Shown: one piece after another, positions 5,589-31,275 of the stretch
Layout: each line of letters starts with the position of its first letter
How positions within the stretch are numbered: position 1 is the stretch's first letter
Assembly: GCF_900232105.1 (NCBI RefSeq)
Contig: NZ_LT934425.1
Coordinates: forward strand, 660,001 to 692,000
Direction of reading: 5' to 3'
DNA length: 32,000 bases
Source of the DNA: Candidatus Kuenenia stuttgartensis
GTDB taxonomy: Bacteria > Planctomycetota > Brocadiia > Brocadiales > Brocadiaceae
Translations under genes and position numbers: made by a program
Notes under the pieces: model-generated
The model's database searches: none
What the model saw: only the letters and a program-made list of their open reading frames with translations
Told to the model about the DNA's origin: nothing

Positions 5589-8018
5589 TCAGTGAAAACT
5601 GCCTTGTGGGCTGCTGCCCGGTGGCTTGCCGTGCATACCTCCTCCGCCGTATTCACCGGGAATCTGGTCTTTTGTTGTATTCAACACATCTATTGCTTCC
5701 TTTAAATTCCTTTCGACTGCCTGCATGGTAAAATCATCTTCTTTTCTCATAAGCTTCGCTACCTTATCTTTACCGATAACGTAGATACATTCGGAATTTT
5801 TACTCTTTGCATAATAGTTATTTTCATCCTTCTTTTTTCCGATATAAAGGACTTCATCACGTTCACCCAAGCCAATGATAATAGACAGTTGCGGTTCATC
5901 TAATGCAAACTGTGTCAGATTTGTTGCTTTGTACTGTTCTATATATTCACCCGTCAGTCTTTCAAGGTTATGGACATAATATTCCACTTCCCGGCTTTGA
6001 AAGTCTTTTACATCGTAATTTTTTAACGTCCAAAAATTATCCGCCTTTTCTATCTGTATTTCCCTGTCAGGATAGACGAGGGTAAGTTTTCTCACATCCA
6101 TCCTTTCAAAATCTAAAATCTTTGTCGGGGCTAACTCGGCATTAAAATCCCTTATTTTTGGCCAGGACAACTCAAATACCAAATTAACTCCGTCAATCAT
6201 AGCATATGAATTGTCCATATCTCCCCCCCCAACAGTATTCCCTATCAACAATGTTTTTGTCTCAATGATTTTGTTAATAGTGTCTTTCGCATCAGTTGCT
6301 ATATTTTGTTTTTCAGATTTTTGATTAATAATTTTTTCGTATGTCACGTGAATTTTCATTCTTGGATTATCCAAACCGAAAACACTAAGATCCGAGGGGT
6401 TTTCCGCAACATAATTTTCCGCTTTTAAGAAAGAGAGATCCCATACGATTTGATTCACCTTGTCTGCATCAGCACGCGCCTGAATCGGTTTGCTTAGTTC
6501 CCAAATAGCATTACCTTCTTCGTCTGTTTTATTCGTTTTTTCACATAAAAAAGTGCGGTCTGTTTTTTCAATTACAATCTTCTTAACCAGTTCTTTATCA
6601 AAATCGCAGACCAATCTGTCTCTGAAAGCAATCAGCGCATTTTCAAGCTTGTCATAAAATTCAACCGTTGAAACGGTATATACCGGATCTTCATCTACCC
6701 GCTTTACATAACATTTATTACCTTCGGGCAATTTATTTCCCACATAAAATCTTGACAATTCTTTATTTTCTTCTTTTATCACGGAAACCTCAAATACAGG
6801 ATCTTTTAACCCATATACTGATAAATCTTCCGGTTTGTCAGAAACAAAGTCTACTATTTCAAGAGTTTTAATTTTCTCAATAAAATTCCTAGCACTGTCC
6901 TGATCCGCATAAATATCAATTGGTTTTCTGATAACCCAGTCAAGCTCCAGTGATTTTTCGATGGATATCGTATCTTTTTTTGTTTTAAATTCCAGCTTGT
7001 TCACTCCATACGAACCGTAAGAATCAAACCTCACTAAAACCCTATCTCTCAGATCGTTTGGTTTCTTTTTGATTTCAGCAAGAATATTATCCTTTAGCAA
7101 AAAAATACTTTTCTCATCTACACGCTTAGCATACACTTTGTTATCAAGTGAGTATCCGAAAATGACCGATTGATCATGTCCCCGTTCAGTAACTGTAACC
7201 ATATATGCCGGATTATCCAGCCCGAACTTGGACAGCTCTACTTCTCCTTCCGGAAGAAAATCCTCCCGATCGATTTCGAGATTTTTAAGTTTTGCGATGA
7301 TATCTCTTACCTTTTGCAAATCAGCCAGGTCGTCAAGAGGTTCCTTAATTCTCCAAAACTCTCTGTCTTTCTCACAAACAATGTTATATTCTTTTGTTTT
7401 TATTTGCAGTCGCGTAACCGCTTCTTTGTCAAAGGTAAAGACCCACTTGCTTCTTAAATCAAGAATGCTTTTATTGATTTTTTCCAGCAAGCTACCCGGT
7501 ACAACAAAAACTTCATCATTTGTGTCAAGTTTAATATATACATTATCGCCCGCCGCAAGTCTTTCTCCAATGAATACGGTGTATTTATTGCTTGGCCCTG
7601 TTATCTGTATTTTGTCCGGACTGGTTTTTACACTTGTGTACATCGTGATATAGTTCTCTTGTTTATCAAAACCATAATATTTTAAGTCAAATGGTTTGTC
7701 TCCTTCTTTTTCAAATGAGCCTACTTTCGACATAAACTCAAACTCGGAGAGAATACTTGAGACCTCAGAATTATTTGCACGCAGCCTGTAAGGTTCCACA
7801 ATAAACCAAAAACCATTCTCAGCTTTTTCCAGTACTATTTTACCGGTTTCGTTCTTTAATTCTATCTTGTTCACCAGTGACGCTTTGAAATATGGCAGCA
7901 CCTTTTTTTGTAACCGCTCCCACTCCTCTTGGGGCAGTTGCTTTTTTTCATAAACAAATATATACGTTATGCCTATAATTGCAATTATTAAGAGAATTAT
8001 GGTAGTTTTAAATTTCAT
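5589..8018 (-). CDS. DUF4340-family protein, N-terminal membrane anchor plus five tandem DUF4340-like modules
   Basis: N-terminal TM segment, then five recurrences of the pattern W-x-[IL]-x-x-P...AD...V...L...L...DL..[YF]GL[DK]xP (for example FWFIVEPYRLRANNSEV...YGFDK; FWRIKEPLDDLADLQKV...FGLDNP; DWVIRKPIDIYADQDSA...YGLKDP; IWELSKPIQARADADKV...FGLDNP). Sits downstream of a GldG-like gene, as is usual for this family. Gly-rich tail GEYGGGGMHGKPPGSSPQGSFH. Confidence 0.7.
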   Translation of the reverse strand: MKFKTTIILLIIAIIGITYIFVYEKKQLPQEEWERLQKKVLPYFKASLVNKIELKNETGKIVLEKAENGFWFIVEPYRLRANNSEVSSILSEFEFMSKVGSFEKEGDKPFDLKYYGFDKQENYITMYTSVKTSPDKIQITGPSNKYTVFIGERLAAGDNVYIKLDTNDEVFVVPGSLLEKINKSILDLRSKWVFTFDKEAVTRLQIKTKEYNIVCEKDREFWRIKEPLDDLADLQKVRDIIAKLKNLEIDREDFLPEGEVELSKFGLDNPAYMVTVTERGHDQSVIFGYSLDNKVYAKRVDEKSIFLLKDNILAEIKKKPNDLRDRVLVRFDSYGSYGVNKLEFKTKKDTISIEKSLELDWVIRKPIDIYADQDSARNFIEKIKTLEIVDFVSDKPEDLSVYGLKDPVFEVSVIKEENKELSRFYVGNKLPEGNKCYVKRVDEDPVYTVSTVEFYDKLENALIAFRDRLVCDFDKELVKKIVIEKTDRTFLCEKTNKTDEEGNAIWELSKPIQARADADKVNQIVWDLSFLKAENYVAENPSDLSVFGLDNPRMKIHVTYEKIINQKSEKQNIATDAKDTINKIIETKTLLIGNTVGGGDMDNSYAMIDGVNLVFELSWPKIRDFNAELAPTKILDFERMDVRKLTLVYPDREIQIEKADNFWTLKNYDVKDFQSREVEYYVHNLERLTGEYIEQYKATNLTQFALDEPQLSIIIGLGERDEVLYIGKKKDENNYYAKSKNSECIYVIGKDKVAKLMRKEDDFTMQAVERNLKEAIDVLNTTKDQIPGEYGGGGMHGKPPGSSPQGSFH

Positions 8019-23388: not shown

Positions 23389-26289
23389 ATGGATGATCGT
23401 TTTCCAACGAATGGAAATGGAGTGGAAAGTCAATCCACTTTAAAAATCCGGTTAGAAAACCTATTGGAAAAGGAAGCAATGATACACAATGCATTTTCCT
23501 CAAGCAGAACGGAACTGTTTGTGGGCAGGCAAAGATATTTTGACCGGCTGGATGAACACATACACGGGGATACTCCCCCACTCATTGTAACCGGCAAACC
23601 GGGGATGGGGAAATCAGCGCTTCTTGCAAATTGGAGAAAACGCTATATCTCCTTAAATCCTGCCAACAAAACCATAATACATTTCATCGGCATTTCACCC
23701 CGCACAAGCAGTTTAGCATCTATGCAGCTACGCATTATCCATGAATTAACCTATGGATTTAACCTTCCTCCGGATATTCCCACTAATCAGAACGACCTCA
23801 ACGTCGCATTTGTCAATGCCCTTTTCATGTCCGCTGCAAAAGGCAAAGCGGTTATTATTCTGGACGGTATCGAACGATTGGAGGGAAGAGACCCCGCACA
23901 AGTCTTATCATGGCTCCCAATTGAAGTGCCTGCGAACATACGGTTTATTTTGTCCGTATCGCCCGGAACCGTATTTGATGTTGTTGCAAAACGTAACTGG
24001 CCTGTTCTTGAAGTAGCACCTCTTGAAGTTGTTGAGCGAAAACAATGTATTCACGCATATCTCCAGAATACTCATTCAACAGCATTAAGCGAAAACCATA
24101 TAAATACAATCGTCCATGCCGTCCAAACATCCAACCCGCTCTACCTTGATATACTCATGGGGGAATTATGTATTGACGACGCCCCCTCCATTGCCGGACA
24201 AAAAATAAGCCGGTATCTCTCCGCACAAAATATTGAGGAACTCATTCTCAGGGTTATTGAACGATACGAACTCGATGATACACTGAACGGCGCTGATGCG
24301 TCATTTTTCCGGAATATCATGTCATTGTTGTTAAGCGCAGGAAACGGACTCATGGAAAATGAAATAAACGAACTGCTCCGTGGGGAAACACCGTCACCGC
24401 AAAATACGCCATTAAAAACCTTGCTACCAAATATGAAACATATCCTGATACAACATTCAAATCTCATTCTTTATAAACACAATGCCTTTCATGATGCGAT
24501 AAAAAGCAGGTATCTCTCAGAAGAAGATGAGAAAAGGCGGTTTCATTTACGTCTTGCAGATTATTTCGGGAAAAACTATTCGAGTCAGCGCGCAATTGAA
24601 GAATTTCCGTGGCAACTGACTCAGGCAAGGTCATGGAATCAGTTATTCGGACTTCTCTCTGATATATCCTTTTTCAATGTCTTGTATGAAACAAGCGCTT
24701 ATGCGGCAACGTATTATTGGTCGCAATTGGAAGAAAACTCTCAAATGCGCATTCCATACGCATATTGCACCATTTTAGAGTCCCCGGAGAATTATATTGA
24801 CCGCATTAAAAACCTTTCCTTTTTTTTAAAGGAGAAAAACCTCCTTACAGAGGCATTGAAGATGTTTGAACATCTTGTCTGTTATTATGAACAAAACAAG
24901 GACTACGAAAATCTGCCCGTAGCCGTCGGAATACTTGCAGATATCCTTTACGAAAGGGGCGGCATGGAAGAATCCATGCAATTACACAAGGATGAAGAAC
25001 ACATTTACCGGAGCGTTGGAAATAATTACGGATTAATGCGCTCCTTGTCACGTCAGGCAGTTATTGCCCTTGCCAACGATGATTTGGAGAACTCCCTACA
25101 TCTCTTCAGGCAGGAAGAACAACTCTGCCGTGAATTGAACGATACTTATCGGCTGTCGTATAATCTTAACAAACAGGCGGAAATACTGTCTCTCCGGCAC
25201 AAAACCACCCTTGCCGCAAAACTGCTTACGGAAGCGGAATCTATCAGCCGCGGCATAGGTGATATGTCAGGATTATCCGTGTGTTTAGGCAACAAAGCCC
25301 GCATAAAAAAGGGTTCCGGAAATCCGGAAGAGGCGATGACCTTTCTGAAAGAACAGGAGCATCTTTGCCGCACCCTGGGAAATAGCAAGGAACTCTCCGT
25401 CTGCCTTGGAAATCAATCGCTTATTCTTACCACCCTTGGAGACCTTGATGGCGCATTCGTTTTACTGAAAGAAGAGGAATCTCTCTGCAAAAACATGCGC
25501 AACGAACACGGGCTATCCTATAACATCGGGAACAGGGCAAATATCCTTTCGATACGCGGTAATCTTGCAGAGGCACTGGAATTATATAAAGAACAATTCT
25601 CACTATTCAAAAAGACACTAAACAAACACGGACTATCATACAATCTAGGCAACCAGGCAAACATTCATTATTCACTGGGAAATGCAGAGGAAGCAATGTC
25701 GTTCTACACGGAACAGGAGCGTTTATGCAGGGAACTGGAAAATGAGGACGGATTATCCTATGCACTCGGTAATCAGGCGATCATTCTTGCGGAAAAAGGC
25801 GACCCTGATAAAGCAATGGAATTGCATAAAGAAGAAGAGCGCATTTGCAGGAAATTTAACAATATGGAAGGATTGCAACGCTCTCTGGGCAACCAGGCAA
25901 GTATATTGTATAGCAAGGGTCATTTGCATGAGGCGCTCGCCCTCCATAAAGAAGAAGAGCGTCTATGCAGAAAACTTGGAAACAAGAGCGAACTTTCAGC
26001 CTGCCTTGGTAACCAGGCGCTTGTCGTTAAGGATCTGGGGAATCCGGATGAGGCGATTGGACTATTAAAAGAACAGGAAGCTATTTGCAGAGATCTTGGG
26101 ATAAAGAGCGGGCTTGCTATTTCATTGGCAAATCAGGCAGAGATGCTTGCGCAAAATCCGGGACGGGCAGATGAAGCACTGCCTCTTGCCGAAGAAGCCT
26201 ATTCAATTACCACTTCTTTCGGTTTTCAGTCATTATCTCACGAAATAGAACCCATTTTACGCGCAATTGAATCCCGATTGGGCAAATAG
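23389..26289 (+). CDS. STAND-class (NACHT-like) P-loop NTPase with a C-terminal array of about eleven 40-aa TPR units; no recognisable effector domain
   Basis: Pre-NTPase FVGRQRYFDRLDEHI, Walker A GKPGMGKS (aa 69-76), Walker B AVIILDG (aa 154-160), followed by a helical/winged-helix-like region. From about aa 500 there are repeating units of the form L(S)xxLGNQAxILxxxGxxxEAxxLxKEEExLCRxLxNxxG. Confidence 0.85.
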   Translation: MDDRFPTNGNGVESQSTLKIRLENLLEKEAMIHNAFSSSRTELFVGRQRYFDRLDEHIHGDTPPLIVTGKPGMGKSALLANWRKRYISLNPANKTIIHFIGISPRTSSLASMQLRIIHELTYGFNLPPDIPTNQNDLNVAFVNALFMSAAKGKAVIILDGIERLEGRDPAQVLSWLPIEVPANIRFILSVSPGTVFDVVAKRNWPVLEVAPLEVVERKQCIHAYLQNTHSTALSENHINTIVHAVQTSNPLYLDILMGELCIDDAPSIAGQKISRYLSAQNIEELILRVIERYELDDTLNGADASFFRNIMSLLLSAGNGLMENEINELLRGETPSPQNTPLKTLLPNMKHILIQHSNLILYKHNAFHDAIKSRYLSEEDEKRRFHLRLADYFGKNYSSQRAIEEFPWQLTQARSWNQLFGLLSDISFFNVLYETSAYAATYYWSQLEENSQMRIPYAYCTILESPENYIDRIKNLSFFLKEKNLLTEALKMFEHLVCYYEQNKDYENLPVAVGILADILYERGGMEESMQLHKDEEHIYRSVGNNYGLMRSLSRQAVIALANDDLENSLHLFRQEEQLCRELNDTYRLSYNLNKQAEILSLRHKTTLAAKLLTEAESISRGIGDMSGLSVCLGNKARIKKGSGNPEEAMTFLKEQEHLCRTLGNSKELSVCLGNQSLILTTLGDLDGAFVLLKEEESLCKNMRNEHGLSYNIGNRANILSIRGNLAEALELYKEQFSLFKKTLNKHGLSYNLGNQANIHYSLGNAEEAMSFYTEQERLCRELENEDGLSYALGNQAIILAEKGDPDKAMELHKEEERICRKFNNMEGLQRSLGNQASILYSKGHLHEALALHKEEERLCRKLGNKSELSACLGNQALVVKDLGNPDEAIGLLKEQEAICRDLGIKSGLAISLANQAEMLAQNPGRADEALPLAEEAYSITTSFGFQSLSHEIEPILRAIESRLGK

Positions 26290-27197: not shown

Positions 27198-27367
27198 CCC
27201 GCAGGCGGAGGGTCTTACACCATTGCCCTGAAGTTTGATGGGACGGCCCATGCATGGAGATATAATACTTATGGTGAATTGGGGACGGGACGACCACGCA
27301 GAGCGCTACACCGATACAGGCAAGCAATCTCCTCTTAAAACCGGCAATACCAACAGCAACCACTTGA
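27198..27367 (+). pseudogene. RCC1-like repeat gene fragment (frameshifted 3' end)
   Basis: AGGGSYTIALKFDGTAHAWRYNTYGELG, then after a 1-nt frame slip DGTTTQSATPIQASNL...*. This matches the RCC1 blade pattern (htlALksDGtvwaWGyNsyGqLGdGtt..r.tPvqv). No upstream continuation. The junction with the integrase remnant (27305-27365) is ambiguous. Confidence 0.4.
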
Positions 27368-27878
27368 CAATAAGCTGAGGAGAGCCTTCAATATAATTTA
27401 TTATTTGACGAACCTCTTCACGGGTCATGACTACTGGAATATTCGTCTTCTTCTGTGCACGTATAGCGTTAATCTCTTCTTTTAATGATACTTTTAAAGT
27501 AACTATTCAGCGTAATTTCTTTAACTACCATATATGACAAAAAAGGCCAAAATCACAGATATTATCCAGAAGTTGTATTGCTATATATAGACAAGAAGCG
27601 TAAATTAATGGGTTTTTGCCATATATTGTACTTTTACTCAAACACGCTGAATAGTTACCTTTTAAAACCTTCTTATACAAAAATACAAGTGCGTTCATAG
27701 CCTGGTTTTGGGTAGAAGGGGCAACGCAAGATTTCACGGCAAGGTGGGTCAAAAATTGTTCTATTTTTTCTTCACCGTCCATTAAATCCTCTTGACTGGT
27801 CATTCGGTGGTATTGAATATAGCCAAACAAATATGATTTTAGGAATTTGGCAATAAAATGGCTTTCTAAAAAACAGAT
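27309..27878 (-). pseudogene. Integron-integrase-like tyrosine recombinase, N-terminal remnant (truncated, MITE-disrupted)
   Basis: EEKIEQFLTHLAVKSCVAPSTQNQAMNALVFLYKKVLK | (MITE) | VSLKEEINAIRAQKKTNIPVVMTREEVRQIINYIEGSPQLIVK closely follows the IntI N-terminal pattern (FLtHLA....vsasTqNQAlsAllFLYreVL...l..i.rakr...lPvVlTreEv..ll..l.g...l...LLYGtG). The catalytic C-terminal two thirds are absent. Confidence 0.7.
27499..27658. mobile_element. 160-bp MITE inserted in the integrase gene
   Basis: Perfect 15-bp terminal inverted repeats GTAACTATTCAGCGT (27499-27513 and the reverse complement of 27644-27658). They are flanked by an 8-bp direct duplication CTTTTAAA (27491-27498 and 27659-27666). 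AT-rich non-coding interior. Removing the element plus one duplication restores a continuous integrase reading frame (..FLYKKVLKVSLKEEINAIRAQ..). Confidence 0.85.
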
Positions 27879-28082
27879 TTATTTGACTAAGCATACTATA
27901 CAAGCACGCCCCTTAATTCCCTCTTTATAGAGAGGACTGGGAGGTGTAAATTTTTCGAAAACCTTATTTGTTTGACTATATATCATTTGATTCAATCACA
28001 GTATGATCGTTCTGTATGGAGGGAATAATGCTTAAGCCTCATTATATCTTTTACTTTATTTGGCAACCCCCCCCTTTTTTGA

Positions 28083-28110
28083 TTGACATCCTTTTCTCCT
28101 ATTCTATACT
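28083..28110 (+). promoter_or_regulatory. Sigma-70-type promoter candidate directed at the cassette-like array
   Basis: TTGACA (28083-28088), 16-nt spacer, TATACT (28105-28110), 134 nt upstream of the ATG at 28244. Two inverted repeats lie in the putative leader: CCTGATAA/TTATCAGG (28164-28195) and ATTGATT/AATCAAT (28199-28217). Confidence 0.5.
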
Positions 28111-28243
28111 GTGTACGAAATAAAATTATAAGGTAATTTTTAAAATACAACACAATAATTTTACCTGATAATAGTACTTTTCCCTAGTTATCAGGGCAAT
28201 TGATTGTGATAATCAATGGTTATCCAATATTTGGAGTTACGAC

Positions 28244-29416
28244 ATGAATGCCAACGCTCAAACAGGAGACACTCAAGACGCTGCTCGCTTGCGTGCGCTT
28301 CTTTCTCAGCTCAATTGGCTAAACGCCCTCAACGACGAGCCCGCCAACGGGGTTTACGAGTATCAGTTCCATTCGGACGCTCACATCACTGGTGAATTCA
28401 CGTCGGGCTTAGGCCCCTATAGCTTTCTCAATACAGTGCCAATACCTGATACGCCGGGAATCGTAACTGCACCAATCATTCTACGTTTGGTTGATCATCT
28501 TCCTGAATATCGACCGGACATGTCAAAAAAGGACGAGACGTTTTATCACGGTGGGACGATGGTTGATGAACTTGCGGCACTATCATCACTGTGCATCGGT
28601 GCTCGAATTATGGCGGGCGGCGAATCGCGGCGATTTGAACCCGGCAAGGATCCAATGGGACGGCCCTGCGCATGGGATTACAAACCAGCGCCATTCCTTC
28701 GTGTACGACCTGGGCGCTATGTTCTTCCTTCCATCACTGGCACCCATTCACTCGATAATCTTAACATGCTGAAGTCAATTCCCAAGATATCACCGGAGAG
28801 GTATGTCAATCTCATCCGGTCCTGCATTGCATATCAGGATGCTCTTTGGGCTGCTGAATCGGAGCCTCATCTTGCTTGGTTGCTGTTCGTATCTGCTCTT
28901 GAAACTGCGGCAAACGACATCTATCTGTCGGATAGATCTCCAGCCGAACGCCTGAAAGATGCGAAGCCAGACGTGGCAACCATTCTTGATGAAGCGGGCG
29001 GCCATCAATTGGTCGAGAAGATTGCCAAACTGATTGCGCCTTCTTTGGGTGCCACAAAGAAATTTCTGGACTTCACCCTAAATTTCGGACCGAACGAGCC
29101 AACTGATCGGCCGGATCAAGAATGGCTGCGCGTGAAATGGTCGAAGACCAACCTCAAGCATACTCTCAGCAAAGTTTACAATTACCGATCTCGCTCACTG
29201 CACGGTGGTTTACCGTTCCCAGCTCCAATGTACGATCCACCTTTCTATTTCGATCGTAAGTCAAAGCCATCTGAGGTCCCACTAACTGGCCTCGCATCAC
29301 ATTCACGCGGCGGTACGTGGTTGCCTGAGGATATGCCAGTAAATCTACATTGTTTTCACTACATCACACGTGAGACCTTGATTAATTGGTGGCGTAATTT
29401 AGCGAATGAGAGATAA
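28244..29416 (+). CDS. Orphan 390-aa protein; C-terminal helical region with an Rx4H (HEPN-like) motif
   Basis: Long ORF with a GGAG SD 8 nt upstream, visibly more G+C-rich than its neighbours. The C-terminal half is helical (ERYVNLIRSCIAYQDALWAAE, LAWLLFVSALETAANDIY, LKHTLSKVYNYRSRSLHGG, NLHCFHYITRETLINWWRNL) with R315-x4-H320 encoded at 29186-29203. I recognise no family for the N-terminal 180 aa. The confidence value applies to the CDS call. The functional guess is far weaker. Confidence 0.8.
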   Translation: MNANAQTGDTQDAARLRALLSQLNWLNALNDEPANGVYEYQFHSDAHITGEFTSGLGPYSFLNTVPIPDTPGIVTAPIILRLVDHLPEYRPDMSKKDETFYHGGTMVDELAALSSLCIGARIMAGGESRRFEPGKDPMGRPCAWDYKPAPFLRVRPGRYVLPSITGTHSLDNLNMLKSIPKISPERYVNLIRSCIAYQDALWAAESEPHLAWLLFVSALETAANDIYLSDRSPAERLKDAKPDVATILDEAGGHQLVEKIAKLIAPSLGATKKFLDFTLNFGPNEPTDRPDQEWLRVKWSKTNLKHTLSKVYNYRSRSLHGGLPFPAPMYDPPFYFDRKSKPSEVPLTGLASHSRGGTWLPEDMPVNLHCFHYITRETLINWWRNLANER

Positions 29417-29422
29417 CAAAAT

Positions 29423-29457
29423 CTTCAACCGGACGCATAAAGCCGCGCCGGTTAAGG
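29423..29457 (+). other. attC-like or terminator-like hairpin 7 nt after the orphan ORF stop
   Basis: CTTCAACCGG-ACGC-ataaagcc-GCG-CCGGTTAAGG. The outer arms resemble R'' (RYYYAAC) and R' (GTTRRRY) and share TTCAACC...GGTTAA with the site at 30666-30722. At 35 bp it is shorter than canonical attC sites. Confidence 0.4.
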
Positions 29458-29920
29458 GCTTGGGTTTGGATAATAGGGTGAGATTAATCGAAATACCGTT
29501 GACGCACCGCAAACGAGTTACAGACCTACCGGAATTAACAGGTCAAGGACACACTTCCCAGTGCTTGTGTGTGTGCAGTAAGGAAACAAGTCGCTAACGT
29601 ACCTGCACGAAATCGTAGAACTGCCGGTATTCAGGTATCACCTAAGTTATCCAATGGTCAATTATGCAGAACGGGGGAATACTGTCATTTCGCCATATAC
29701 AACACCATGGCAGGTCAACTGCAAGGCAGGCTGATGAAAGGGCAGTACTGAGAAGTTGGAAAAAGCAAATGTCATTCTATAATGGCGTGAATAGGGTATG
29801 AAACATGACTTGACTCTAAAAGGTCGGGAATCAAACTTTTCGATTCTGAAAGGAATGCCTACTTCCAACAGGTGTTTCATTGCGGGAAAATTGAAAGAAT
29901 ATTCGGAGGCAGGAACGCAA

Positions 29921-30142
29921 ATGACGGGAATCAATCCTGGTGCTCTTCCCGATGATGCAATAACGTGGCATACCATAAATTGGGATGCTGCAAGGCGTCA
30001 CGTCAGAAGACTGCAAATGCGTATCGCAAAGGCTGTAAAGGAAGGAAGACCAGGCAAGGTGAAAGCTTTGCAATGGCTCCTTACCCACTCTTTCCACGCC
30101 AAGCTCCTGGCTGTTAAAAGAGTGACCTCAAAATCGAGGTAA
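29921..30142 (+). pseudogene. Group II intron reverse transcriptase/maturase, N-terminal 73-aa fragment
   Basis: [70 protein letters not shown] matches the conserved N-terminus of bacterial intron-encoded proteins (W..i.W......V..LQ.RI.kA...g...kvk.Lq.lLt.S...kllAv.rVt). GGAGG SD upstream. After a frame slip (..NRGKTV) the ORF joins directly to the extreme C-terminal/domain V region, so RT domains 1-7, X and En are deleted. Confidence 0.7.
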
Positions 30143-30184
30143 AACAGTCTGGTTGTCCTACAAGGGCAGCTTATTGAAATACTT

Positions 30185-30218
30185 GAGCTGTATGGTGGGA
30201 AACTATCACGTACAGTTC
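30185..30218 (+). ncRNA. Group II intron domain V
   Basis: GAGCTGTATGGTGG-GAAA-CTATCACGTACAGTTC is 34 nt, with the AGC catalytic triad, a 2-nt CG bulge on the 3' strand and a GAAA (GNRA) tetraloop. A U-A pair replaces the usual C-G at position 5/30 (compensatory change). Confidence 0.85.
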
Positions 30219-30273
30219 TTAGGAGGGTATCGGGCAGCAATGCCCGTGACCTATCCGATTCCGTTGAAAGGAA

Positions 30274-30317
30274 GTGAGGACGACCTCACCGCTCCAATAT
30301 ACATAGGGGACGACCTC
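30274..30317 (+). promoter_or_regulatory. Guanidine-II (mini-ykkC) riboswitch
   Basis: Two tandem hairpins, each with an ACGA loop closed by GG/CC: GTGAGG-ACGA-CCTCAC (30274-30289) and GGGG-ACGA-CCTC (30306-30317), separated by a 16-nt linker. They sit just upstream of the GAAGG SD and the ATG of an SMR/SugE gene, the classic genetic context of this riboswitch class. Confidence 0.8.
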
Positions 30318-30338
30318 AGCATTTGTGAAGGCAAATAT

Positions 30339-30659
30339 ATGGCGTGGATCATTCTTGTTATTGCGGGACTGTTTGAGACTGGCTGGGCGATCGGGTTGAA
30401 GTACACCGAGGGGTTCACCCGATTGTGGCCTACGGTCTGGACAGTCTTGGCGATGATTATCAGTCTTTGGTTACTGGGCATTGCCTTGAAGTCGCTTCCG
30501 ATTGGCACCGCTTACGCCATTTTGGTAGGAGTTGGAACCGTCGGAACCGTTGCGCTAGGCATCGTACTGTTTGGAGAATCTACGAATACTGCCCGGCTCA
30601 TCAGCATTGCTCTGATTATTGCCGGTATCGTCGGGCTTAAGCTTGCGACACCGGCCTAA
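30339..30659 (+). CDS. sugE: SMR-family guanidinium exporter (SugE/Gdx)
   Basis: 106 aa, four TM helices. [31 protein letters not shown]...[27 protein letters not shown] includes the essential membrane Glu in TM1 and the SugE-type KYTEGF motif. I reject the tracked 30153 start because its first 62 codons are intron domain V/VI plus the riboswitch. Confidence 0.92.
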
Positions 30660-30813: not shown

Positions 30814-31014
30814 ATGTCAACTGTAAGCAAAATCAAAGAAGCGATAGAAACCCTTCCAGAAAATGAGTATGTCCAATTGAGGCAGTGGTTTTTGGAAAAA
30901 GACTGGGAAAAATGGGATAATCAGATTTTAGCGGATTCAGAAGCAGGAACGCTGGATCCCCTGATCAAGGAAGCCTTTGAAGAAAAATCGAAGGGAAAGC
31001 TTAAAGAACTATAA
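30814..31014 (+). CDS. Type II antitoxin (small helical, C-terminal toxin-wrapping type)
   Basis: 66 aa. The IKEAIETLPENEYVQLRQWF...WDNQILADSEAGTLDPLIKEAFEE pattern is common in antitoxins paired with RelE/ParE-superfamily toxins. GAGGGA SD upstream. Its stop is fused to the next ATG (TAAATG). An extended -10 (TGCTATACT) lies upstream. Confidence 0.6.
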   Translation: MSTVSKIKEAIETLPENEYVQLRQWFLEKDWEKWDNQILADSEAGTLDPLIKEAFEEKSKGKLKEL

Positions 31015-31275
31015 ATGCATCGGACAACAAATCGATCCTGAAAATATTTTGAGAATCTTCCACCACTTGTTCAAAAGAGAGCTAAGAAGAATTTTGAGCT
31101 TCTCAAAAAGAACCATTCGCATCCATCTCTTCATTTTAAAAAAGTTGGAGAGCTTTGGTCAGCCAGAGTCGGAATGAATCATAGGACACTTTCTGTTGAA
31201 AATGGTAAAGATTATATTTGGGTTTGGATAGGTACTCACGATGAGTACGAGTGTATGATTAATAAAAAGGTCTAA
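31015..31275 (+). pseudogene. RelE/ParE-superfamily-like toxin with an in-frame TGA at codon 9
   Basis: MHRTTNRS*KYFENLPPLVQKRAKKNFELLKKNHSHPSLHFKKVGELWSARVGMNHRTLSVENGKDYIWVWIGTHDEYECMINKKV*. The segment ..nP.hPsL..KK....lWsaRv...yRal....g....W.WIGtHdeY is a recurring small-toxin pattern. The stop at 31039-31041 is the only defect, and there is no alternative start before M at 31174. Confidence 0.6.

Follow-up and report, generated by a model that had tools for sequence, protein, structure and literature searches.

A two-domain protein from a strain-variable Kuenenia island belongs to a large uncharacterised family and is a probable stand-alone immune protein with a diverged ApeA-like HEPN domain

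In a 32,000-nt stretch of the genome of the anammox planctomycete Candidatus Kuenenia (contig NZ_LT934425.1, positions 660,001 to 692,000; hereafter the window), we examined an open reading frame (ORF) for a 390-amino-acid (aa) protein, which an earlier sequence-only reading had presented as an orphan HEPN-like candidate toxin or defence effector in the first cassette position. Our analyses indicate that the product of the gene is probably a two-domain protein that acts on its own in immunity or abortive infection, and the C-terminal domain of which would be a diverged ApeA-like HEPN ribonuclease (RNase). The HEPN-like effector of the sequence-only reading is thereby retained as the best explanation, based on residue conservation, domain layout, profile comparison with hhalign and the genomic contexts of homologues, while the protein proved not to be an orphan, the motif lies elsewhere in its helix than assumed, and the cassette framing is not supported. 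Solo sensor-fused HEPN defence proteins are a known kind; new here are an uncharacterised large family for which there is no model and an N-terminal domain without detectable relatives. More tentatively, the family could form an unrecognised, widespread single-protein anti-phage system, in which an ApeA-like HEPN RNase is joined to a sensor fold without detectable relatives that answers to a new infection signal, and which would be carried in the Z/fun hotspot of P2-like phages and in anammox Planctomycetota, among other places.

Far from being an orphan, the protein had about 297 homologues in a word-indexed search, and a profile search of 1.84 billion cluster representatives returned 1,502 proteins at E <= 1e-3, including 746 at E <= 1e-30. 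Among the best 150 of the 1,502 profile matches nearly all were full-length (370-410 aa). The closest homologue (99% identity) is from Candidatus Kuenenia, followed at 82-85% identity by proteins from metagenomes and from a deltaproteobacterial metagenome-assembled genome. Scanning one genome per species revealed relatives scattered across more than 15 phyla, among them Planctomycetota (including the anammox genus Scalindua), Latescibacterota, Gemmatimonadota, Acidobacteriota, Chloroflexota, Cyanobacteria, Streptomyces and other Actinomycetota, Proteobacteria, Spirochaetia, Armatimonadota and Deinococcales. With one peptide pattern, ~100 matching stretches were found in 185,579 species genomes, and a homologue annotated as hypothetical was present in five of 5,426 complete E. 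coli genomes. This broad but rare and patchy distribution is what would be expected for a horizontally spread accessory gene. In addition, full-length homologues of ~33-37% identity were found on seven plasmids.

The composition of the ORF was likewise foreign, as had been estimated from hand counts (a little over 50% G+C). Its G+C content of 50.1%, compared to 40.6% for the window, ranked first among 617 sliding windows equal in length to the ORF (z = 3.26). A housekeeping role of the protein in Kuenenia, in RNA processing or as another core factor, would be in line with the presence of an identical protein at the same locus on 21 Kuenenia contigs. However, the extreme patchiness of the family, its foreign composition, nearest relatives in other phyla and the existence of plasmid and phage copies effectively refute such a role.

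Scans of the protein, 30 family members and the phage homologue described below against Pfam, NCBIfam, PADLOC and PHROGs gave no relevant match. In UniRef, the copy of K. stuttgartiensis, which falls in the same 90% cluster, and that of Bythopirellula are named 'Apea-like HEPN domain-containing protein', a label that could not be reproduced with the Pfam library used. Because the same library also failed to match the experimentally validated Ec1ApeA and Ec2ApeA (E <= 0.01), its miss on the family carries no weight.

An AlphaFold model built from 30 close homologues was poor in the N-terminal half; a second model from 130 diverse sequences reached a predicted local distance difference test score (pLDDT) of 94.7 and a predicted template modelling score of 0.93, and comprised two domains (Table 1). 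In the N-terminal alpha/beta domain, six strands (residues 36-44, 47-49, 52-56, 59-63, 75-84 and 123-131) and two helices (106-118 and 170-181) were modelled, whereas residues ~184-390 were helical, as predicted in the sequence-only reading. In a conservation set of 130 sequences, the identity of which to the query had a median of ~38%, nine residues were invariant (R129, W212, E220, F277, Y312, H320, P326, W359 and W382). Both R315 and S316 were 99% conserved, and only one of the 130 sequences lacked the arginine. Near-invariant positions in the N-terminal domain were E39, D45, R81, Y101-H102-G103-G104, E109, R121 and D136. For this domain, no relatives were found in Pfam, NCBIfam, PADLOC, PHROGs, the PDB sequences or by Foldseek, and we propose that it serves as a sensor or regulatory domain.

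According to Anantharaman et al. (PMC3710099), a HEPN core consists of a pair of alpha-hairpins, with a variable insert separating helix 2 from helix 3, and in the model the order of secondary-structure elements of the C-terminal domain matches this definition point by point. Predicted helix H1 (residues 184-203) is followed by H2 (208-226), which contains the invariant E220 and the SALETAAND stretch, by a helical insert (233-281; helices 233-240, 242-267 and 270-281), by H3 (301-321) and, after a long loop and a small beta-hairpin (352-359), by H4 (368-388). The motif VYNYRSRSLHGG with R315-x4-H320, which the sequence-only reading had correctly recognised and had placed at the start of a helix, is positioned by the model at the C-terminal end of H3, from where it continues into the loop that follows. 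As the helix end is the canonical position in HEPN domains, this correction fits the HEPN assignment.

In order to compare the family with ApeA, Ec1ApeA and Ec2ApeA were located in E. coli genomes via the 5' DNA given in the supplement of the ApeA preprint, and 45 ApeA sequences including these two validated proteins were aligned and compared with the family alignment by hhalign. The single match paired family residues 174-323 with ApeA residues 327-510, and thus fell largely within the HEPN_ApeA domain (residues 335-583; bioRxiv 10.64898/2026.01.26.701840). Paired residues were W212/W367, Y312/Y499, R315/R502, S316/N503, H320/H507 and G322/G509, with R502 being the catalytic arginine of ApeA that has been mutated experimentally (bioRxiv 10.64898/2026.01.26.701840). 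The full-length comparison gave P = 0.013 and a probability of 3.4%, and restriction to the C-terminal domain and the ApeA HEPN domain gave P = 0.002, a probability of 13% and a score of 28.4. Reversed profiles scored 20.0 and 18.5, and block-shuffled nulls had a mean of 18.2, with none of 150 reaching 28.4.

We also compared the surroundings of the homologues at 82 loci. No neighbour family was common to more than four of these loci, and no small conserved ORF lay within 700 nt of the gene. The family is a solo gene without antitoxin or other partner, and the conserved adjacent antitoxin gene that would be expected for a type II toxin-antitoxin (TA) toxin was not found across the 82 loci. Immediate neighbours included SIR2, TIR, LmuB, type II restriction-modification, SoFic, PDC (PADLOC) candidates, nSTAND3 and HEPN_LA2681, as well as DDE and IS21 transposases and integrases, in otherwise heterogeneous neighbourhoods. 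As a qualitative context, homologue loci were generally rich in defence and mobile genes.

Eight records of Peduovirus (P2-like) phages, from Yersinia and E. coli, contained homologues of 36.9% identity. The phage gene is placed between the tail-fibre assembly gene G and the tail-sheath gene FI, an interval which we take to be the Z/fun position of the P2 map. At locus L084 (positions 5977-7098), the phage homologue was strongly AT-rich, with 36.6% G+C compared to 52.3% for the surrounding locus; the skew in Kuenenia is the opposite one, as the gene there exceeds its host in G+C content, and the gene looks foreign in both hosts. In phage vB_EcoM-720R8, the first 11 nt of the homologue are shared with a 75-aa ORF (L084:5760-5987) that is annotated as 'ubiquitin-conjugating enzyme H (fragment)'. 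This ORF was uncalled in the RefSeq record of the Yersinia phage and in the record of the E. coli prophage, had no PADLOC match, was not conserved at the other loci and is probably spurious. Z/fun has been described as an accessory and defence hotspot among P2 tail genes (PMC13586616; bioRxiv 10.1101/2024.10.15.618418).

These locations could also be explained if a HEPN-type RNase served the mobile element itself, be it as a stress or dormancy toxin, as an addiction module of an island, integron or prophage, or as a phage 'moron' with another role. The gene adjoins an integron-integrase-like remnant, homologues reside on plasmids and prophages, the cargo of the Z/fun hotspot is mixed and not restricted to defence (bioRxiv 10.1101/2024.10.15.618418), and stress-induced dormancy has been proposed for a HEPN family of integron cassettes (PMC3710099). 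In contrast, a partner antitoxin, which addiction modules normally need, is lacking, no attC site was found, many loci have no immediately adjacent mobile element, and the solo sensor-fused HEPN proteins studied so far, ApeA and DARNA, are anti-phage. We therefore regard service to a mobile element as unlikely.

Several observations weigh against an anti-phage HEPN protein. The hhalign probabilities of only 3-14% are weak statistics, and the maximum of the block-shuffled nulls (27.8) came close to the real score, which implies that much of this score stems from the motif block. The residue following the conserved arginine in HEPN proteins is mostly N, D or H, and the acidic residue of helix 2 typically occurs as Ex3[KR] (PMC3710099); S316 is polar and highly conserved yet not one of the usual residues, and E220 is found in an E-x3-N context, with N224 conserved in 45% of the sequences. 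E220 was also offset by one helical turn from E371 of ApeA in the hhalign alignment. Foldseek searches of the PDB with the pLDDT 94.7 model gave a best E of 0.84 and no support for a HEPN fold, those of BFVD gave no significant match, and the ApeA structures 9hxb-9hxn, which are in the PDB sequence set, did not surface in a Foldseek library that may not include them. No PADLOC 2023 defence model recognises the family, including the phage homologue, and a literature search by family accessions found nothing, so that no member has experimental support. Finally, in a crude control, PADLOC matches per ORF were similar at 5.5-8 kb distance and next to the gene; with such distal counts, no specific defence enrichment over the genome background is demonstrated.

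Part of this evidence would be expected if the C-terminal domain were not a HEPN domain, with Rx4H playing a structural or ligand-binding role in an unrelated helical fold and any activity residing in the N-terminal domain (R129, E39, D45, R81, E109, R121). The absence of HEPN neighbours in Foldseek despite a confident model, the low-probability ApeA profile match, the lack of matches to Pfam and NCBIfam HEPN models and a set of conserved charged N-terminal residues as dense as the C-terminal one are in favour of this explanation. However, Pfam overlooks Ec1ApeA and Ec2ApeA as well, and the ApeA profile barely detected the structurally confirmed Thr1ApeA (E = 0.055, motif region only), so that missed Pfam and NCBIfam HEPN matches are to be expected for diverged HEPN domains. 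Moreover, the position of the motif in its helix, the acidic residue in helix 2 and the insert between H2 and H3 fit the HEPN definition, and hhalign paired several near-invariant residues in the right order with a score above all nulls. A non-HEPN fold thus appears rather unlikely, and none of the searches placed the protein confidently in a non-HEPN family. Nor did the other two refuting findings listed in the sequence-only reading, a lack of R315/H320 conservation among homologues and housekeeping contexts of the latter, come up. The HEPN entries AbiV and Las1, which had appeared in the Foldseek noise of the poor model, disappeared with the better model and were not counted. One single-sequence and two profile searches of the PDB sequences returned only noise, including a transglycosylase (E = 0.14-0.9) over a 54-residue helical stretch.

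Comparison with characterised systems further delimited the proposed immune protein. ApeA (~580-600 aa) consists of a helical N-terminal domain, a Mid domain and a HEPN domain, has a dinucleotide ligand and cleaves tRNA anticodons (bioRxiv 10.64898/2026.01.26.701840). Like the family, it is a single-gene system without partner and has a non-catalytic N-terminal part, which in ApeA forms the ligand pocket that controls the nuclease. Both also occur in tail-gene hotspots of P2-like prophages, with Ec2ApeA at one locus (L086) and family homologues at three others (L084, L085, L094). In contrast to the three-domain architecture of ApeA, the family has 390 aa and a single ~150-aa alpha/beta N-terminal domain, and profile similarity is weak and confined to the HEPN domain. 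The hhalign score of the N-terminal domain against ApeA residues 1-330 (N-terminal and Mid domains) equalled that of the reversed control, and the PADLOC and NCBIfam models for ApeA ('HEPN family anti-phage protein ApeA') did not match the protein at E <= 10. Identity with ApeA was rejected on the basis of architecture. In E. coli JNQH497, Ec2ApeA (L086:2605-4356) lies in a P2-like prophage between the baseplate gene V and a virion morphogenesis gene, and Ec1ApeA was located at L087:2651-4456. RefSeq labels the Ec2ApeA-type gene 'hypothetical protein', which, together with the missing Pfam-A matches of Ec1ApeA and Ec2ApeA, indicates that diverged ApeA-like HEPN proteins are systematically under-annotated.

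DARNA, a HEPN tRNase triggered by single-stranded DNA bound to phage SSB (bioRxiv 10.64898/2026.02.22.705581), similarly combines a HEPN effector and a sensor domain in a single protein and causes abortive infection via tRNA cleavage. Its domains are, however, in reverse order (HEPN 1-159, then a helical sensor 160-456) and all-helical, no sequence relationship to the family was detected, and DARNA was likewise rejected on architecture. In DARNA and in the active conformations of Csm6 and HepT, the two motif histidines of a HEPN dimer are reported to lie ~8 A apart. The integron-cassette HEPN family (PDB 3jrt), which is integron-associated in Gammaproteobacteria (PMC3710099), comprises Rx4-6H HEPN proteins beside an integron integrase, comparable to the proposed HEPN domain and the integron-integrase-like remnant of Kuenenia. 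The Kuenenia protein differs by its additional N-terminal domain, and an attC site could not be demonstrated for its gene; 3jrt was not retrieved by Foldseek. In the ApeA study, HepT is named as the nearest structural relative of the HEPN domain of ApeA (bioRxiv 10.64898/2026.01.26.701840). As minimal HEPN toxins of HEPN-MNT pairs (PDB 7AE8, 5YEP), HepT proteins have a four-helix HEPN core with Rx4H ending H3, as is proposed for the family, but they are small and are neutralised by an adjacent MNT antitoxin, whereas the family has large inserts, an extra domain and no conserved neighbour. The family thus represents a distinct architecture, which would have only an ApeA-like HEPN module in common with ApeA and DARNA.

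Following the logic shown for ApeA and DARNA, two copies of the protein would dimerise like other HEPN enzymes, and R315, H320 and the helix-2 glutamate E220 would together make up a composite active site that works without metal. The dimer would be an RNA-cutting enzyme, with tRNA anticodon loops or mRNA as the most likely targets, and the N-terminal domain would hold the nuclease off until an infection signal, such as a small molecule, a nucleic acid or a phage protein, is sensed; with such autoinhibition no antitoxin gene would be needed. The activated enzyme, by cleaving RNA, would bring translation to a halt and abort the replication of the phage. As a one-gene module, the gene would be spread horizontally by plasmids, genomic islands and P2-like prophages, and in Kuenenia it may have been acquired recently into a strain-variable island beside a decayed integron-type integrase.

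Sensor-fused HEPN RNases such as ApeA and DARNA are models of infection detection, and each one characterised has a different trigger. The present family is a large one, comprising about 1,500 clusters at 50% identity, and is absent from Pfam, NCBIfam, PADLOC and PHROGs; its conserved N-terminal domain, having no recognisable relatives, could point to a trigger or a sensing fold of a new kind. Natural P2-prophage homologues from E. coli (WP_223660635.1; strain 19KM1831 / phage vB_EcoM-720R8) and Yersinia (YP_010107834.1) make the idea directly testable in standard phage-defence assays. For Kuenenia, an anammox organism of industrial importance whose phage defences have been little studied, the gene serves as a marker of a strain-variable island.

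Table 1 Features of the gene and its surroundings (positions in the window)
Feature	Position	Strand	Basis
Gene for 390-aa two-domain protein of a large uncharacterised family	28244..29416	+	ORF read, homologue searches, model
N-terminal alpha/beta domain, ~residues 31-182	28334..28789	+	Model, conservation
C-terminal helical HEPN-like domain, residues 183-390	28790..29413	+	Model, HEPN definition, hhalign to ApeA
Codon of E220, invariant acidic residue of proposed HEPN helix 2	28901..28903	+	100% of 130 sequences
Codons R315-S-R-S-L-H320, Rx4H, end of proposed HEPN helix 3	29186..29203	+	Conservation, hhalign to ApeA R502-N503...H507
Shine-Dalgarno sequence GGAG, 7 nt before ATG	28233..28236	+	Sequence read
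Sigma-70-like promoter candidate, TTGACA-16 nt-TATACT	28083..28110	+	11/12 matches, ~134 nt 5' of start codon
Imperfect inverted repeat I1, 21-nt arms, 81% complementary, 16-nt spacer	28151-28171/28188-28208		Inverted-repeat scan
Second inverted repeat I2, overlapping I1	28118-28136/28161-28179		Inverted-repeat scan
Short G+C-rich hairpin AACCGGACGC...GCGCCGGTT, without T-run	29427..29453	+	Sequence and fold
Broken tyrosine-recombinase pseudogene	27300-28153	-	Family matches of fragments
STAND NTPase, 966 aa, AAA_16/NACHT-like domain and many TPR repeats	23389-26289	+	Family matches

The good Shine-Dalgarno sequence noted previously for the 390-aa ORF was confirmed (Table 1). Of the strong promoter and two inverted repeats described upstream, the repeats and a candidate promoter site were recovered, the latter in the intergenic region common to the gene and a divergent integrase remnant. 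Promoter-like sites were, however, no more frequent in the region than in shuffles (3 observed versus 3.7), and the match is to a sigma-70 consensus from which promoters of Planctomycetota may differ. Inverted repeat I1, located between the promoter-like site and the start codon, could act as an operator or as a hairpin of the 5' untranslated region. Downstream, a 27-nt hairpin starts 11 nt past the stop codon of the gene. No terminator was called by prediction at this hairpin, which may nevertheless be a terminator stem behind which a group II intron remnant was inserted. With attC sites measuring ~55-140 nt, the hairpin is too short to be one. Folding of the 151-nt region 3' of the stop codon was no better than that of shuffles (z = -0.22) and showed no attC-like structure, and no repeated attC-like element was seen.

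The divergent recombinase remnant consists of an N-terminal piece (27992-28153) and a SAM-like piece (27525-27830), with ~160 nt of unrelated sequence between the two; another stretch that is in frame (…PVVMTREEVRQI…) continues to ~27300. Its best NCBIfam match was the integron integrase TIGR02249 (E = 1.6e-12), at 47 bits far under the cut-off of 265 because the remnant is a fragment. The locus has an integron-like geometry, with a divergent intI-like gene, a promoter and then the gene; attI was not identifiable. A position of the gene in the 'first cassette', as suggested by the sequence-only reading, is unproven, and the cassette framing is not supported, as no attC-like structure was found 3' of the gene.

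In Kuenenia, the locus is bordered by flagellar genes and the STAND NTPase-TPR gene on one side and by a riboswitch-controlled SMR gene on the other. Of the neighbours listed in the sequence-only reading, the STAND NTPase and the integrase and group II intron debris were found as described. In contrast, the small ORFs at 30814-31177, read as a TA module, had no family match in the window scans, and a DUF2281-PIN pair is present only in strain GCA_027493735.1. In this strain (L090:11555-20407), ~8.5 kb of extra DNA between the gene and the intron remnant and SMR gene identify the site as a strain-variable island. Besides the DUF2281-PIN pair, the insert carries a DNA methylase, an uncharacterised 333-aa protein, an intact group II intron reverse transcriptase (RT; RVT_1 and GIIM) and a DruA/DDE transposase, and it has RVT_N fragments on either side. 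Upstream, this strain also encodes an additional TPR protein of 433 aa. The STAND NTPase, which is situated between the flagellar gene cluster and the island, may act either as an immune sensor of the Avs/NLR type or as a regulator.

A degenerate group II intron (~29456-30262) follows in the same orientation as the gene. It starts just past the hairpin after the stop codon of the gene, which suggests insertion behind a terminator-like stem. The remnant comprises an ORF for an N-terminal RT fragment (29798-30142; RVT_N, E = 6e-22) and a domain V/VI RNA (30183-30259; Rfam, 57.5 bits), the direct succession of which indicates that most of the RT has been deleted. Further downstream lies a guanidine-II (mini-ykkC) riboswitch (30272-30318) with 45.4 bits compared to a gathering score of 32. 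It is directly followed by an SMR transporter gene with a likely start at 30339 (NCBIfam SugE, 138 bits compared to a cut-off of 126). The segment from 30272 to 30659 has the appearance of a Gdx-type guanidinium exporter gene under riboswitch control, in this case of an anammox bacterium.

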